From: Anaerolineales bacterium
Lineage (GTDB): Bacteria; Chloroflexota; Anaerolineae; Anaerolineales; E44-bin32
Reading direction: 5' to 3'
NCBI GenBank assembly: GCA_029210945.1
Contig: JARGGH010000004.1
Location: 50,454-114,453 of the forward strand
DNA length: 64,000 bases
Shown here one piece after another: positions 4,983-64,000 of the stretch. The translations under genes and the position numbers were made by a program. The notes under the pieces are model-generated. The model searched no databases. It was not told where the DNA came from and was given only the letters and a program-made list of their open reading frames with translations. How positions within the stretch are numbered: the stretch's first letter is position 1; each line of letters opens with the position of its first letter.

Positions 4983-5310
4983 TCACGGGGCAGGATCAGG
5001 AGATCATCATCTCCCAAAATAAACAGCTCCGAAGAAGAATATCTCCGGAGCATCACGTGGCGACCCGACGCGTTTATGCGCGGGTCGCTCGCCTTCTATC
5101 ATCCGGACTATACCGTCGGCCCCGGAGTTTCACCGGATCCTGCGCATTTCGCGCTCGCGGGCTCTCACCGCCGGTCGGGAATAAAGCGATCTGCTCGCAC
5201 CCTGCCCCGAAGGCTGATCAATTGGATTGTGATCCACATTATACGACACAACTGCAGGTAGGGGATCACAACCGGACACGCCAAACGTCACATCGCCTGA
5301 CAATCCCGTC

Positions 5311-23288: not shown

Positions 23289-24641
23289 TCAAGCCCCGCC
23301 GCCAGTCCCCTGCTCCACCGCAGCATGCGCATCAATCCAGCGTACATACGCTTCGCACACATCCACCGTCGCGGCGAGCACATCTTCACGGATGATGTCG
23401 ATCGTATCTTCCGGCGTGTGGACATGCTCGATGTCGAATTGGGCCGGATCGGGGACGCGCAGGAGAAATGCCAGCGCGCGAGCCGGCCAGCTCAACTTCT
23501 TCGGGTTTTCGCGCAGCAGGGAGACGGCTTTTGAGAACCCCCTCTCGGCCCACTCGGCATGGTCCGAACTCCCACCCGAAATGGGCGATTCCCAGCTGCG
23601 CAGGTAAGCCACATCAAGCGCCTCGCAAATATCAATCAGCGCTGTTACGATCTCCGGGTCGGTCTTCCGGCGGAACATGACCCCCTGTCCGGTGTGGATC
23701 AACAGCTTCTCGCCGACACCGACGACGTCGGCGTTAACGATGTAGGTGCTGCCCTTATCGAGCCGTCCGCCGTACTGGCGTACAAACTGCCGCGATCCGT
23801 ACAGACCGAGCTCCTCGGCACCCCAGAACGCGAAAAACGTCTCCAGGTTGGCTGGTGGGGACTTCTTAAGCCGCTCGATCATCTCCAGCACCAGGGCCAC
23901 TCCCGAGCCGTTATCGTCCGCGCCCGGGCTGTCGCCGTGCTCGCGCAGGAGCAGATCAAGGATGTAGATCGTGATCAGGAGGAGCTGGGGTACGAATACG
24001 GCGACCATGATCCAGTAGCCGACCTTTATCCAGAACGTTGAAAGTGCCGTGAGCGCCTGCGATCCCACTCCGAAGAGCATATCCAGAAGGTTGAACACGC
24101 TCATCAGGAACAGCACGGCAAACAAGGTCAGCATTGTCATCGAAAGCAGCGGGCCTACAGATCTCATCTTCTTGATCATGCGCACAATCCAGCGCGGTAG
24201 GTTCTGGGGCGTATCGTAGTGGGCGCAGATCAGCAGCGTTGGCCTTTGCGGCTCATCGAGGTGCTCTGAAAATGGTTTCTCCAGACTGGCGAGGATGTTC
24301 TGGCTCCTGGTGCGGGCCAGCCGCAGCATCAGCCGGGGGTGGAGGCGGCTGGAGTAAAGCTGGTGGAGGACCACACCGCCGAGCACGATGATCGAATCCA
24401 GTTGCCGGCTGAAGAGCAAGAAGACGAACAGCGCCATGTTGCGCACCCAGGCGATCGCGTAGCGAACCAGTGGGCTCCCCAGGAAGGCGTACTCGCGCTC
24501 CTCCGCCAGAACACCCACCTCGCCCAGCACCCCAAGCAGCCATGCCCTGGCGCGCGCCTCCCCTGGCGTCCCCGCCCGCCTGGGACCGACTTCCGATTGA
24601 AGCCGCCGTAGATAACCGATCGCATCCATGCCATCCATCAT
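23289..24641 (-). CDS. M28-family zinc peptidase with a multi-TM insertion between its metal-ligand motifs
   Basis: CAHYDT...DDNGSGVALVLE...WGAEELGLYGS...DH motifs; three hydrophobic helices lie between HYD and DDNGSG. Confidence 0.7.
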   Translation of the reverse strand: MMDGMDAIGYLRRLQSEVGPRRAGTPGEARARAWLLGVLGEVGVLAEEREYAFLGSPLVRYAIAWVRNMALFVFLLFSRQLDSIIVLGGVVLHQLYSSRLHPRLMLRLARTRSQNILASLEKPFSEHLDEPQRPTLLICAHYDTPQNLPRWIVRMIKKMRSVGPLLSMTMLTLFAVLFLMSVFNLLDMLFGVGSQALTALSTFWIKVGYWIMVAVFVPQLLLITIYILDLLLREHGDSPGADDNGSGVALVLEMIERLKKSPPANLETFFAFWGAEELGLYGSRQFVRQYGGRLDKGSTYIVNADVVGVGEKLLIHTGQGVMFRRKTDPEIVTALIDICEALDVAYLRSWESPISGGSSDHAEWAERGFSKAVSLLRENPKKLSWPARALAFLLRVPDPAQFDIEHVHTPEDTIDIIREDVLAATVDVCEAYVRWIDAHAAVEQGTGGGA

Positions 24642-24736: not shown

Positions 24737-25609
24737 CTACGCCCACCGTCGCGGTCGGAACTGCAGCGCCTCGGCGAGATGGGTGGTCGCAATCTGGTCT
24801 TCACCCGCCAGGTCGGCGATCGTGCGCGCCAGCTTGAGTACGCGGTGGTAGCCGCGCGCCGAAAGGCCGATCTGCTTCATCGCTTGCCGGATGAGGGCTT
24901 TTCCGGTTTCGTCGGGGGAGGCGTAGAGGCCGATCTCTCCTGGCCCCATGTCGGCGTTGCACGCCAGCGGAGTGCCGTCGAAGCGGCCGTGCTGGCGCTC
25001 GCGGGCGCCTTCGACGCGCTCCCGCACCGCGGCGGAAGGCTCGCCCGCCCGGTCGGAGGACAGCTTCTCGAAATCGACGCGCGGCACCTCGACGTGGATG
25101 TCGATGCGATCGAGCAATGGGCCTGAGATGCGTTTCTGGTAGCGCGTGACCGTCGCCGGCGTGCAGGTGCACTCCCGTTTCGTATCGCCGAAGTAGCCGC
25201 ACGGGCAGGGGTTCATCGAAGCCACAAGCATGAAATTCGCCGGGAACGAGAGCGAGCCGCGCGCCCGGCTGATCGTGACGATCTTGTCCTCCAACGGCTG
25301 ACGCATGACCTCCAGCACCTGGCGGCCGAATTCGGGCAGCTCGTCAAGGAAGAGCACCCCCCGGTGGGCGAGCGAAATCTCGCCCGGGCGGGGCCAGTTT
25401 CCGCCGCCCACCAGGCCGGCGTTCGAGATTGTGTGATGGGGGGCCCGGAACGGGCGCGTTCGAATGAGCGGGGAATCCGGCGGCAGCTGGTCGGCGACGG
25501 AGTAGACGCGGGTCACATCGAGCGCTTCATCGAAGCGCATCGAGGGCAGGATCGAGGGCAAGGCACGCGCCAGCAGAGTCTTTCCCGCACCCGGGGGGCC
25601 GGTCATCAA
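24737..25609 (-). pseudogene. comM: comM/yifB (Mg-chelatase-like AAA+ competence protein) 3' fragment; the gene is interrupted by an insertion
   Basis: Translation begins inside the Walker A box (LMTGPPGAGKTLLARALP) and continues through the C-terminal Mg_chelatase_C region. There is an in-frame stop immediately upstream. The matching 5' half lies at 27752-28450. Confidence 0.8.
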
Positions 25610-26844
25610 CGTGACGTGATCGACTGCCTTTCACGCGGCGGATCGAACCATCCCTCTAGCCAGAGCTCCCCTTCTTCCGGAATGAATACTCGGACGTGCA
25701 GGAGCTCGAGAATCTTCCGCTTTTCCGGGGGAGAGAGGTCATCAGCTCCCTCGAGCTGCTCCCTGACCTCGCCGGCGAACGCCTCGATCGTCTCAAACTC
25801 TGGCGGAGCTGCCACTGACGCAAGCTGAGTGCGGATCTCATCGATCTCAGCGTCAAGCGTTTTCAGTTCATCCTCGATCGCTGTACGCTGCTGCAAATAT
25901 TCCGTCTTGGTCAACTGGATATCCGGATCGAGATAGGCGGTCATCAGGTTAGCCCCCTTCTTCTCGTGCTTCTGACGAGCTCGCTCGAGGGTCTCCAGCC
26001 GAAGCCTCTGCCGCTTGGTCGTAGCCTGCTGCTGCTCGAGCGATTCCTCATAGCCTTTCCGGAGGTTGTCCGGATCGAGCAGGACTTCGACAATCCGGCT
26101 CCAGACGACCGGGTCGACCTTGCGAGCCGATATGATCCGGTTCCTGCAATGACCCTCCCTCGACCGGTGCCGATACTGTGGAGCGTCGTTCTTCCGCCTG
26201 TGTTTGCCTGCCTTCTGCGTCTGGCAAGCGTAAGGACGGCCGCAATCGGGGCAGTAGACCATTCCACTCAGGAGGTAGAAGCGGCGAGGCTCCTGGCGGC
26301 GTACAGCCTTGTTGCGACGGAGCTTTTCCTGCACTTCTCGGAAGATCCGAGGATCAACGATCGGCGTCGTGTCGATCGGGATCCACTTCTCTCTGGCTCG
26401 CTGTTCTCGATCCTTCCCATTGCGCTTTGATTTGTTGTAGTAATTAGTACCGATATAGGTCTCGTTTCGGAGAATCTTCGTGATCGTCGACTTCCCCCAG
26501 GAGGACCGGCCAGTCGGCGAGGGGATATCATCATCTGTCAGGTGCTCTGCAATCCCCCGGATCGATAAACCTTCTCGAGCGTAGAGCTCGAAGATGTACC
26601 GGATGACATCGGCCTCATCCTCGACCACAGCCAGGCCGGCGGGAGCCTCCTCATCGAGTTCGTATCCGTACGGAGCTCGACCGCCGACGAATTTCCCCCG
26701 CTCCGCTTTCCCCCGCTTCCCGCGGAGTGATCGCTCTACTCGCTTGAGATTCTCCCATTTTGCAAAGGTTGCATCGAGATCCTTCCGAACCTCCCCCTCC
26801 GGAGAAGCAGGTTTCTCTAAACCGATTGTGAGGGCTTCGATCGA
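25606..26844 (-). pseudogene. large serine recombinase lacking its N-terminal catalytic (resolvase) domain
   Basis: The recombinase domain, Zn-ribbon (YCPDCGRPYAC...C) and coiled-coil are present. The open frame extends upstream only to 26844 (…DLDATFAKWENLKRVERSLRGKRGKAERGKFVGGRAPYGY, an alpha-E/linker remnant). A stop follows there and no Ser-nucleophile region appears in any frame. The stop codon overlaps the comM junction. Confidence 0.75.
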
Positions 26845-26991
26845 TCATCGGGAGAGCGGCCTCCTCTGTTGTTGTTCATCCTGGTAGGCTCCTCTCCTCG
26901 TCTCGGGGGATGATCTTCCGTGGTCTCTCTTCGTCGATCTCTTAGCTCCAACAGGAGCATATAGACGGACGCCAGGGGGGAAGGAGAACGA

Positions 26992-27198
26992 CTAATTCGC
27001 ATCGCCGCTCTCCTGAAAAACCGATATCGGCTCGACGGATTCGATGAGTTCGTTTCCCCTTTGATGGATTGCTTCCCTGATGAGAAAATGCAAATGATCC
27101 CGAGGGGTGCGATCGGAGGCTTTCGCGTCAAGCGCAAGAAATTCTGCCTCCCTCGGAAGGAGGCTGATCATCACTCGGATGGACCTCTCCTCAACCAT
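26992..27198 (-). CDS. ribbon-helix-helix (CopG/Arc-like) DNA-binding protein
   Basis: 68 aa with an N-terminal beta-strand plus two helices pattern (IRVMISLLPREAEFLALDAKASDRTPRDHLHFLIREAI). Immediately upstream of the recombinase remnant. Confidence 0.5.
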   Translation of the reverse strand: MVEERSIRVMISLLPREAEFLALDAKASDRTPRDHLHFLIREAIHQRGNELIESVEPISVFQESGDAN

Positions 27199-27280
27199 GT
27201 ACTTAAGATCCCACAGATCGGAGGGACAAAAAAGACCCCAAATTTCTTTGGGGTCATGATTTGCTTGAGTATTCAGGTGT

Positions 27281-27631
27281 CTATTGATCCAAGCGGTTTA
27301 TCGCCCTTTTCACACCCTTGCGTATCGTCTTCTTAGGATCCTCATAGAATTGCGCCCCAGGTTTGTTCCGAAAGATATCTTCAACAACTGCATTAAGATC
27401 CCTATCACCATAAACCACCTGTTTTGCTCCCCACTCATACCATTTATCTCGCGGTCGTCCTGGTCCGGATTGAGGGGGATCCCACTCAGGCCAGAATCGA
27501 ACTATCCCCGCCTTCTGCTCGGCCTCAAGAAACTCAATTACAGCGTGCTCTTTCGGAGTTGTCTCAAGAGGCTCGTTGGGTCCCTTCTTCCATTCGAGCT
27601 TGCCTGAGATCCTTCCATCCGTAATATCCAT
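27281..27631 (-). CDS. hypothetical protein (116 aa) in low-GC DNA
   Basis: ORF in a ~45% GC segment. Trp-rich (FWPEWDPPQSGPGRPRDKWYEWGAKQ). I recognise no family. Confidence 0.4.
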   Translation of the reverse strand: MDITDGRISGKLEWKKGPNEPLETTPKEHAVIEFLEAEQKAGIVRFWPEWDPPQSGPGRPRDKWYEWGAKQVVYGDRDLNAVVEDIFRNKPGAQFYEDPKKTIRKGVKRAINRLDQ

Positions 27632-27751
27632 AACAAAGCCGCCTTGCAGTCGATGCAGGCGGCTGTATAATTACCTTTGCCATGCCGCCATCATCGGCTG
27701 GCCATAGCCGGGAGCCCTACGCTCGCCGGCTTTTCTCTGCGTGATTATAGA

Positions 27752-28450
27752 CTACCGAACCGCAAACTCCAAGCTGAGTGTGAATGGCTGTCGTTCAATC
27801 CATGAAACGTTGTGCCCGCCCGCAGCCGCCACTTCCAGCGCGCGCTTGGCATGCTCCTGCCCTTTTACATCCTGAAAATCGAGCGGCCATTCAAAGTCAA
27901 CGTCGGTCAGTGAAACCGAGTCGACCGGTTCAAGCGGGACGACGCCTGTCAGGTGATTGACCAGCGCGGTGAGATTCTCAACCGGGTAAACCGTGAGACC
28001 CTCCACGACCGCCGCTTCCGGCGCGTCATCGGCGGGGACGTACATCGCCTCCACGCCGTGGTCCCTGGCCTGGACCGCCATGGGCAGCACGCCGCGAATG
28101 TGGCGCACGGTGCCGTCGAGTGACAGCTCCCCGACCGCCATGATATCCCTCAGCCAATCACGCTTGATTTGCCCGCTGGCAGCCAGCACACCCAGCGCGA
28201 TGGGCAGGTCATAGGCCGGGCCTTCTTTGCGCAGGTCAGCTGGTGCGAGGTTGACGATCACACGCCCGCGCGGGAAGATCAAGCCGGCGTTCTTAATTGC
28301 CGCCATGACCCGTTCTTTGCTTTCCTGAACGGCAGCATCCGGCAGCCCTACGATCGGGAAGGAGGGGAGCCCGCGCGCTGTGTCCACTTCCACTTCGACG
28401 ATCTCCCCCTCCAGCCCAACGACGGCTGCAGCGTGGACCCGTGCGAGCAT
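27752..28450 (-). pseudogene. comM: comM/yifB 5' fragment (Lon-like/ChlI N-domain up to just before Walker A)
   Basis: MLARVHAAAVVGLEG...FQDVKGQEHAKRALEVAAAGGHNV, then 17 unrelated residues and a stop. Confidence 0.8.
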
Positions 28451-28627
28451 GTCTGAAGTCTACGCCCGGAAGGGTAAAAGGTCAAACGATGAAAAAACAG
28501 CAATTTGCGTAACGGCCCACGGCTTACAGCATCCTGGGGCTCACTTCCCCCCATCTGACTGACGACATGTAATAATTGGAATAATGTGTGTATGATTGCC
28601 GCATGACTTATCTCTCATCTTGCCGAA

Positions 28628-29005
28628 TTGACAGATATGTATGATAGTATGTACCATGCAGTAGCTAGGAGGGTAGGGGGTTTTCCCTCGAGTATGGTCA
28701 ATGATGACGATATCTTCATCTTTACTGCGCAAGACCCAAGAGGAATTAACGTACGATGTACGGAAAATCGTTGGGTCAATCACATCTTAGACAGTCATCC
28801 TTTTCTGTATGGATGGGAGGATGATGTCAGAAAAACCATTGAGCACCCCCATTTTATAGGTGAAGATGCAACTTTTCCAGACCGACAGGTGTATTATCGC
28901 CGAGATGGTCGCAGGTATATTAAAGTCGTTATAAGAGTGGCAGATGATACAAATGCCGAGGTGTGGCATATCTCACAGACTCGGGAAAATCTGGTGAGAC
29001 AATAA
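28628..29005 (+). CDS. hypothetical protein, DUF4258-like (candidate toxin of a two-gene module)
   Basis: 125 aa in a low-GC islet. It ends in a hydrophobic strand (RYIKVVIRVADD). Family assignment is from memory and tentative. Confidence 0.4.
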   Translation: MTDMYDSMYHAVARRVGGFPSSMVNDDDIFIFTAQDPRGINVRCTENRWVNHILDSHPFLYGWEDDVRKTIEHPHFIGEDATFPDRQVYYRRDGRRYIKVVIRVADDTNAEVWHISQTRENLVRQ

Positions 29006-29006
29006 T

Positions 29007-29438
29007 ATGGATGCCATAGAGCGCCTAATGCAAACAGCAGACCTAAAGATGACATTGTTTGAGGAAGCGACCAGCAGGGGCAGACCTGCGTTCTTCAATT
29101 ACAACGCAGATGTCGATATGCTGATGTTCCTAATCGTGGCACCTACTGAAGAATTTATCGCACACTACTTGGATGAACACGTTGCGCTGCTATATTTAGC
29201 CAAGTCCAATGAAGTTGTTGGTTTGCAGGTTGAAGCATTTGAAAAGAGTTTCTTGCCGAGATATTCTTCCTTGCAGAAAGCTTGGAGATTGAGTGACGCG
29301 TGTGATGAACTTGAAGATATGGGAGATTTGGCGATCGTTATTCAACAAAAGGAACCTGAGGTTGCCCAAGAGGTCATCCGCATCGCGCAAGGCATTCTGG
29401 GGTACTCACCAAACAATTTGCACGCAGTTCCTGCCTAA
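29007..29438 (+). CDS. hypothetical protein, DUF2283-like (candidate antitoxin partner)
   Basis: 143 aa, starting 1 nt after the upstream stop. The ...YNADVDMLMFLI...VVGLQVEAF pattern resembles DUF2283. Confidence 0.4.
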   Translation: MDAIERLMQTADLKMTLFEEATSRGRPAFFNYNADVDMLMFLIVAPTEEFIAHYLDEHVALLYLAKSNEVVGLQVEAFEKSFLPRYSSLQKAWRLSDACDELEDMGDLAIVIQQKEPEVAQEVIRIAQGILGYSPNNLHAVPA

Positions 29439-29469
29439 CATATATAATGTCTACACAGCTTGACGAGAC

Positions 29470-29505
29470 AACCGCCTGAGTTCCCACCAGGCGGTTTTGC
29501 TTTCT
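29470..29505 (+). terminator. rho-independent terminator after the DUF2283-like gene
   Basis: aaccgcctg-agttcccac-caggcggtt followed by TTGCTTTCT. Confidence 0.55.
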
Positions 29506-29558
29506 GTGATCAGCCCACTGGCAGAAGCCCAGCTGGAAAAACAGACTTGCCGCGATGA

Positions 29559-44519: not shown

Positions 44520-44595
44520 GCCCCCATCGTCTAGGGGACCAGGACGTAGGCCTTTCAAGCCTAAAACGGGGGTTCGAATCCCCCTGGGGGCACCA
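44520..44595 (+). tRNA. tRNA-Glu (anticodon UUC), CCA encoded
   Basis: Cloverleaf folded by hand: acceptor GCCCCCA/UGGGGGC, D-stem GUC/GAC, anticodon stem UAGGC/GCCUA, loop CUUUCAA, T-arm GGGGG-UUCGAAU-CCCCC. It parallels E. coli tRNA-Glu. Confidence 0.85.
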
Positions 44596-63923: not shown

Positions 63924-64000
63924 ATCGGGATAGGGGAGGGCCTCACGGCCCTACCCCTCCCACACCACCGGACATGCGGGTCCGCATCCGGCGGTTCGGC

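Follow-up and report, generated by a model that had tools for sequence, protein, structure and literature searches.

Among predicted site-specific large serine recombinases (LSRs), 12.4% target homologs of Mg-chelatase and ATP-dependent proteases, and the targets of LSRs are enriched in competence genes (PMC10083194). In Acinetobacter, interruption of the competence helicase gene comM by mobile genetic elements (MGEs) within its Mg-chelatase (MgCh) domain is well documented (PMC11472951). Here we describe a comM gene of an Anaerolineales bacterium that is split in two by an insertion of about 2.2 kb, which carries the remains of an LSR. The locus lies in a 64-kb stretch of a metagenome-assembled genome (MAG) (GenBank GCA_029210945.1, contig JARGGH010000004.1, positions 50,454 to 114,453), which we call the window and number from its first letter. 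It is probable, in our judgment, that an element with a comM-specific LSR inserted in comM and that a later internal deletion left the 2.2-kb remnant, with comM as a two-piece pseudogene. A first-pass annotation of the window, made from the sequence alone, had drawn attention to the locus and called comM a recurrent integration target, as is indeed documented for both MGEs and LSRs (PMC10083194, PMC11472951).

Results

comM is interrupted just before its Walker A box

The ComM domains PF13541 (ChlI), PF01078, and PF13335 are all present and collinear in the window, but they lie in two open reading frames (ORFs) 2.2 kb apart (Table 1). The ORF at 27752-28450(-) encodes the ChlI/Lon-like N-domain and Mg_chelatase profile positions 1-25, and the ORF at 24737-25609(-) encodes Mg_chelatase positions 26-206 and Mg_chelatase_C (Pfam), so that the break falls exactly between positions 25 and 26, just before the Walker A box, where the first-pass annotation had placed it. 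Both halves are otherwise intact, as it had also stated, at 86-90% identity to orthologs: residues 1-215 of the 5' fragment share 86-89% amino acid identity with the intact orthologs at loci L041 and L042, and the 3' fragment shares 88-90% with intact orthologs over 289 residues, with no frameshifts. DNA homology to intact comM genes ends at 27807. The two halves do not share a continuous frame; past codon 216, the 5' frame runs through the arm of the element for 17 junk codons and stops at 27752.

To search for orthologs, we joined the fragments as ...GGHNV+LMTGPPG..., giving a 505-aa product. The best 120 homologs of this rejoined ComM are all single proteins of ~505 aa, five of them at 87-89% identity. 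These closest orthologs are single 505-aa genes reading GGHNVLMTGPPGAGKT; intact orthologs read GGHNVLMTGPPG across the split site, and the L041 and L042 genes read AAAGGHNVLMTGPPGAGKT. L041 and the window are syntenic, with acyl-CoA dehydrogenase, comM, and phosphoribosyltransferase (HPRT) genes in both. Uninterrupted genes are thus at hand in relatives, as the first-pass annotation had expected, and because the orthologs are single 505-aa genes, comM is not naturally split in this lineage. The window comM is a split pseudogene of a ComM/YifB family member, not one ~505-aa polypeptide. Some metagenomic organisms carry two comM paralogs: at L060 they stand in tandem ~2.2 kb apart, both with an attB-like GGGCACAACGTNYTGATGACCGG, and a metagenomic organism represented by one contig (L050/L063) also has two.

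Table 1. Coordinates of the comM fragments, the insertion, and its parts in the window
Feature	Position	Strand	Description
comM 5' fragment	27806..28450	-	Codons 1-216 (Pfam); ends AAAGGHNV
Left junction, attL	27786..27805	-	Lone T at 27805, then far-end arm P'
Arm P'	27804-27786	-	CATGGATTGAACGACAGCC
Structured non-coding leader	27632..27734	-	Upstream of orf116; three hairpins
orf116	27281..27631	-	Cargo gene
orf68	26992..27198	-	Small cargo protein, putatively ribbon-helix-helix (RHH)-like
Spacer	26809..26991	-	183 bp; ends at deletion breakpoint 26809/26808
LSR remnant	25606..26808	-	Residues 132-531 of intact relatives (Pfam, amino acid identity)
Recombinase domain	26622-26311	-	Part of LSR remnant
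Zn-ribbon	26274-26092	-	Part of LSR remnant
Coiled-coil/C-terminal region		-	Predicted; follows the Zn-ribbon
Right junction, attR	25608..25628	-	Arm P and core TT (25609-25608); comM restarts GATGACC
Arm P, recombinase-proximal	25628-25610	-	GGCAGTCGATCACGTCACG
comM 3' fragment	24737..25609	-	LMTGPPGAGKT... to natural stop; Walker A, AAA+ core, Mg_chelatase_C lid

The recombinase lacks its catalytic domain

The recombinase ORF, 25606-26628(-), encodes 340 aa and matches PF07508 over the full profile (positions 1-102; E 1.9e-23) and PF13408 at positions 1-57 (E 2e-9), and no PF00239 resolvase domain was found in it (Pfam). An LSR recombinase domain and Zn-ribbon without the catalytic domain are what the first-pass annotation had described; the coiled-coil region is predicted from collinear 76-81% identity to full-length relatives. 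The frame is open for 412 codons (26844-25609), with GTG at 26628 as its first possible start, and homology to relatives extends to 26808, which puts the ends of homology and frame ~62-74 codons upstream of the recombinase domain and not 35 as first given. Three full-length relatives (P0002, P0003, and P0004; 530-545 aa, PF00239 present) share 81%, 78.5%, and 75.5% amino acid identity with the remnant. P0002 aligns to the window only through its residues 132-531 (tblastn), the remnant beginning inside the end of helix alpha-E at codon 132 of the relatives, and DNA homology to three intact relatives (L001, L043, and L044) starts exactly at 26808.

We looked for the missing domain throughout the window. 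A resolvase-domain hidden Markov model (HMM) built from 12 relatives gave nothing but matches of E > 0.7 across all six translated frames of the 64 kb, and tblastn, blastn, and tblastx also found no resolvase coding upstream in the window, in agreement with the first reading; no other LSR was found within the 64 kb. The spacer has no homology to L001, L043, or L044 (blastn, tblastx) and no resolvase-like coding in any frame. Upstream of the breakpoint, VRLYAPVGAKRS had looked by eye like the resolvase motif IYARVSTDDQ, a candidate that we rejected after blastn, tblastx, tblastn, and the domain HMM showed no homology. The 340-aa ORF is identical to an NCBI entry labeled "MAG: recombinase family protein [Anaerolineales bacterium]." By its domain content, we classify the window recombinase as a remnant of an LSR-class member and not as a functional LSR, because the catalytic domain is missing.

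The recombinase belongs to a comM-targeting family

A scan of one genome per species recovered 34 loci of this LSR family, all in Chloroflexota/Anaerolineae, and in about 22 of the 34 the 3' end of the LSR abuts comM, at the same codon. P0002 (L001-L006), P0003 (L044), and P0004 (L043, via the 3' junction sequence) all adjoin a comM fragment, and intact full-length relatives occupy the same comM codon in other Anaerolineae. Decay is common across this comM-targeting family. The recombinase is frameshifted in L046, has a nonsense codon in L047, and has its N terminus replaced at residue 141 in L048. In L001-L007, the recombinase is intact and the AAA+ core of comM (~198 codons) is deleted, leaving an N-fragment and the C-terminal lid; this P0002 lineage has the recombinase closest to that of the window, in the opposite orientation and with a palindromic AT core.

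The only family member with both ends in hand, L032, is an element of ~7 kb that reads, from its far end, an RHH-like ORF, a primase (Zn-ribbon and Toprim), an AAA_25/DnaB-like helicase, small ORFs, a helix-turn-helix protein, and the recombinase. At other family loci, a span of 10 kb does not reach the second half of comM, which makes those elements longer than 10 kb; among their cargo are a tyrosine integrase, a STAND-like protein, and a methyltransferase-helicase. Since complete relatives range from 7 kb to >10 kb, the window copy is an internal-deletion remnant. Our searches found no full-length copy of the window element, and the sole homolog of its cargo gene orf116 sits on a 1.7-kb contig outside comM. 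The family does not classify as prophage: no member was found in IMG/VR, and the cargo has no PHROG matches.

A sister branch of the recombinase family (L019, L020, L021, L023, and L030) adjoins a different gene, a truncated RF-1-domain (ArfB-like) gene, which is broken directly after its SSGPGGQNVN motif. Its hosts include Levilinea saccharolytica (L021) and Bellilinea caldifistulae (L023). This suggests retargeting between conserved motif-coding sites, from comM to the GGQ codons of RF-1-domain genes.

Junctions place the probable crossover within a conserved codon

Both attachment (att) arms of the element are retained. Arm P and the reverse complement of arm P' are identical at 13 of 19 positions in register, and at 2/20 if shifted by one, and the 19-nt arm beside the recombinase stop is also found, in the same register, in L001, L043, and L044. 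The first-pass annotation correctly ended the 5' fragment at AAAGGHNV, but it took "HVT" before LMTGPPG for comM, whereas these residues come from the att arm, which mimics comM. The foreign DNA therefore comprises 27804..25610 (2,195 bp) and one 2-bp core, ~2,197 bp in total, so the size first given, 2.18 kb, is corrected to about 2.20 kb.

The motif ACGTT is shared by the two junctions (27810-27806 and 25612-25608). An ACGT(T) motif had been pointed out at both, and the motif itself stands, but the crossover is likely to be only its terminal TT, with the remainder reflecting similarity between attP and attB. We took positions 1-2 of the second codon after GGHN as the core and set all family junctions in a common register on it; across ~25 junctions, the recombinase-proximal arm then aligns gap-free. 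We also considered ACGT, or its CG, as a palindromic crossover serving both orientations and rejected it, since the 25 junctions in register give CT, TT, or AT, of which only AT is palindromic.

The family occurs in both orientations. At type A loci (the window, L014, L017, L022, L024, L031, L035, L038, L039, L043, L044, L046, and L047), the recombinase lies in the sense of comM and adjoins the 3' half; at type B loci (L001-L007, L008, L010-L013, L015, L016, L018, L026, L028, L029, L032, and L036), it is antisense to comM and adjoins the 5' half. In the reading direction of the recombinase, type A cores are CT, TT, or AT, and type B cores are AG, AA, or AT; in that of comM, every locus has CT, TT, or AT. 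In serine integrases such as Bxb1 and phiC31, the central dinucleotide alone fixes polarity. The complementary cores in the two orientations fit this rule together with a quasi-palindromic attB (CAYAAY...ATGAYC).

At attL of the window, the comM codon GTT ends at 27806 and leaves one T (27805) for the core where two are expected. attL thus appears to be 1 nt short, a T having been lost from a T-run, as read from a homopolymer in a single assembly; if so, even precise excision would frameshift comM (CAC AAC GTT TGA). At attR, the recombinase stop codon TGA (25608-25606) straddles the junction, as the first-pass annotation had noticed, and consists of the second core T and GA of comM. It overlaps the ATG of a comM Met codon (25606-25604) as TGATG; the same overlap is present in L043 and L044, because the Leu-Met codons of comM are conserved at the crossover.

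From these junctions, the predicted attP (P-TT-P') is GGCAGTCGATCACGTCACG-TT-CATGGATTGAACGACAGCC, and the predicted comM attB is GGGCACAACGTT-TT-GATGACCGGCCCC. Searches recovered neither an attP nor an attB of the same species. No same-species empty site was found either; an attB pattern scan of metagenome contigs returned 18 loci, all intact, whose identity over the body of comM is only 64-75%.

The insertion carries a small cargo module

The first-pass annotation treated the insertion as a recombinase and overlooked the rest of its contents, two ORFs (27281-27631 and 26992-27198) and a structured leader. The leader has a minimum free energy of -57.4 kcal/mol (z = -3.35), and its last hairpin is terminator-like and followed by UUUGUU-AUG, so placed that it directly precedes the start codon of orf116. 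It shares ~70% DNA identity with positions 1012-1114 of L045; between these two known copies, the stems are kept and the loops differ. No credible Rfam match was found for the leader, only one sub-threshold chance match. It could be an attenuator, a riboswitch-like element, or a small RNA.

orf116 has a single homolog among 5.8 billion proteins (P0242, 64% identity), and an intrinsic-terminator-like hairpin lies just 3' of it, at 27255-27234. It has no Pfam or PHROG match and no credible PADLOC match, and its AlphaFold model is of low confidence (predicted local distance difference test score of 68), with no fold match in a Foldseek search of the PDB. orf68 likewise has no family match in Pfam or PHROG; from its sequence pattern, it is a putative RHH-like, DNA-binding regulator, weakly similar (pairwise E 0.002) to the ORF that occupies the corresponding place at the far end of the L032 element. 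A HMMER search of 1.84 billion representatives gave nothing usable on the function of either protein. A homolog of orf68, 58% identical, stands directly 3' of the orf116 homolog in L045, a 1.7-kb metagenome contig on which the leader and the orf116-orf68 pair lie 3' of a cytidylyltransferase-like gene and not in comM. Since the pair recurs outside comM, it is a portable module that travels independently of the comM element.

Neighboring features

Between the start of comM and the acyl-CoA dehydrogenase gene is a 1.1-kb island of low GC content (28451-29558; 44-49%) with two plus-strand ORFs of 125 and 143 aa without family matches. L041 has ~170 bp in this place, so the island looks like a second small insertion beside comM. 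On the other side, comM and the phosphoribosyltransferase gene are separated by an M28-family peptidase gene (23289-24641, minus strand). Most of this gene is missing from L041, although that locus is syntenic; alignment there is limited to ~390 bp of intergenic DNA, which match the 3' end of the peptidase gene. The window also contains a group II intron match at its very end (63924-63996, minus strand; Rfam RF00029, 45.5 bits, above gathering) and two ordinary features, an FMN riboswitch (5087-5218, minus strand; 95.5 bits) and a tRNA gene (44520-44592, plus strand).

Discussion

The split, the domain content of the pieces, and the family-wide association with comM suggest the following course of events. 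A small integrative element with a comM-specific LSR would have integrated into comM shortly before the Walker A box, where the core TT makes up bases 1 and 2 of the second codon after GGHN (TTG). The recombinase gene would have stood at the very right-hand edge of the element, reading out across attR, and its stop codon therefore comes from comM. Later, an internal deletion (or replacement) would have removed everything between the far-end module of leader, orf116, and orf68 and recombinase codon 131. The resolvase domain with its Ser nucleophile would have gone with it, as would any genes for replication or accessory functions, leaving the two ends of the element fused. Such a remnant would be unable to catalyze its own excision, and comM would stay fixed as a recently made two-piece pseudogene.

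The element was evidently acquired horizontally and not inherited within the clade, since its LSR shares 81% identity with the LSR of L001, above the 68.5% between the comM genes of the hosts, and the nearest hosts (87-90% comM identity) have an uninterrupted comM. As for its age, the first-pass annotation had proposed that the element decayed in place. The catalytic loss holds, by way of an internal deletion, but the disruption looks evolutionarily recent: with no signs of decay in the comM halves or in the recombinase remnant, decay in place cannot be old. The window comM has 1 substitution at otherwise invariant columns, compared with 1-5 in each of 38 orthologs, and its dN/dS (ratio of nonsynonymous to synonymous substitution rates) relative to L041 and L042 is ~0.04-0.07, equal to that of intact pairs, although dS is saturated and the measure crude; an out-of-frame comparison with L001 was left aside. 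Probably, then, comM was disrupted recently; less probably, the pieces remain under selection.

Several observations weigh against an insertion followed by internal deletion. The comM halves have no frameshift, stop, or excess of unique substitutions, and the recombinase remnant is still an open frame. No full-length copy from the same species turned up in our searches, and the reading does not account for the origin of 26809-26991. Moreover, the source is a single metagenome-assembled contig, on which both the breakpoint and the 1-nt T deficit rest. The last point raises the question of an assembly or sequencing artifact, in which a full-length element was collapsed or misjoined and neither the missing resolvase domain nor the missing T is biological. 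The 340-aa ORF indeed forms a cluster with one member on one contig, and the T deficit falls within a homopolymer run. However, no repeat was detected at the breakpoint, composition shifts smoothly across the insertion, the orf116/orf68 module adjoins a bona fide P' arm as it would at the end of an element, and other family members have lost or inactivated the recombinase independently, the N terminus included; we regard an artifact as very unlikely.

The open frames could also be read differently, as a regulatory switch in which a related recombinase acting in trans excises the insertion and restores comM. Both att arms are kept, the comM halves and the DNA-binding portion of the recombinase are intact ORFs without relaxed constraint, and related LSRs are common in Anaerolineae. 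Yet the window encodes neither a catalytic domain in cis nor a second LSR, rejoining B-core-B' at the shortened attL is predicted to leave comM out of frame, and several relatives are plainly decaying (the L046 frameshift, the L047 nonsense codon, the loss of the AAA+ core in L001-L007), all of which makes a switch very unlikely. We are just as doubtful that the split gene is alive, with the C-terminal AAA+ half translated by UGAUG stop-start coupling and working alone or with the N-fragment. The recombinase TGA overlaps the comM ATG here as in L043 and L044, an intact Walker A box is present, and there are signs of constraint on both halves; but the overlap arises automatically from the conserved Leu-Met codons, the L001-L007 lineage has lost the AAA+ core altogether, and the signal of constraint is not separable from recent insertion. 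We know of no split ComM that functions. A variant in which coupled translation of the AAA+ half is combined with retention of the dead recombinase stump as an att-site-binding protein would explain the lack of decay, and it is hardly any more credible. Finally, a naturally two-gene comM, or an insertion that is an intein or intron, is practically ruled out. The split sits at the P-loop, a classic intein site, and nothing else speaks for it: the best 120 homologs are single proteins, the five closest included, the N-fragment frame stops within the insertion and is not joined to that of the other half, and no intron-family Rfam match lies in the insertion.

Insertion of a comM-specific LSR element followed by internal deletion thus remains the reading that we prefer, and it has practical consequences. 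In this genome, comM should be annotated as a two-part pseudogene, and the 340-aa "recombinase family protein" should be marked as a remnant; integration of heterologous DNA with the help of ComM is probably absent in this organism. With ~25 independent junctions at a single comM codon, the survey also yields a natural data set on one LSR family; the junctions illustrate both the choice of conserved motif-coding DNA by serine integrases and the decay of the elements. Nothing in the locus overturns current understanding.

How does this element compare with known systems? It resembles the LSR elements of Durrant et al. 2022 (Nat Biotechnol, PMC10083194): its relatives have the PF00239/PF07508/PF13408 architecture, the target is a coding sequence of the same gene family, interrupted from within, and the edge of the element, by the att site, is taken up by the recombinase gene. 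It differs in that the window copy lacks the catalytic domain and most of the cargo and in belonging to a family of Anaerolineae MAGs; the occurrence in both orientations with complementary cores comes from the present analysis and not from that study. The A. baumannii AbaR/AbGRI (Tn7-like) islands and other MGEs interrupt the same host gene in the same MgCh domain, and loss of ComM-dependent transformation is well documented there (PMC11472951). In contrast to our element, AbaR/AbGRI use TniABC-type machinery rather than a serine recombinase, and the insertion position and host phylum are different.

Listeria A118/phi10403S in comK is likewise an LSR element inside the coding sequence of a competence gene, with the integrase adjacent to the att site. 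However, these are complete prophages whose integrase is active and whose excision is both precise and regulated ("active lysogeny"), whereas the window holds a 2.2-kb stump. The B. subtilis skin (SpoIVCA) and SPbeta (SprA) elements and the Anabaena fdxN element (XisF) are also gene-interrupting LSR elements, some of them degenerate prophage remnants, but they keep a competent recombinase and restore the host gene in development, which the window copy cannot do. With no active recombinase and a rejoined comM that is predicted to be out of frame, the window element is not a switch of the skin or phi10403S type. LSR targeting of Mg-chelatase-like and competence genes has already been published, and the locus described here is a further, decayed example.

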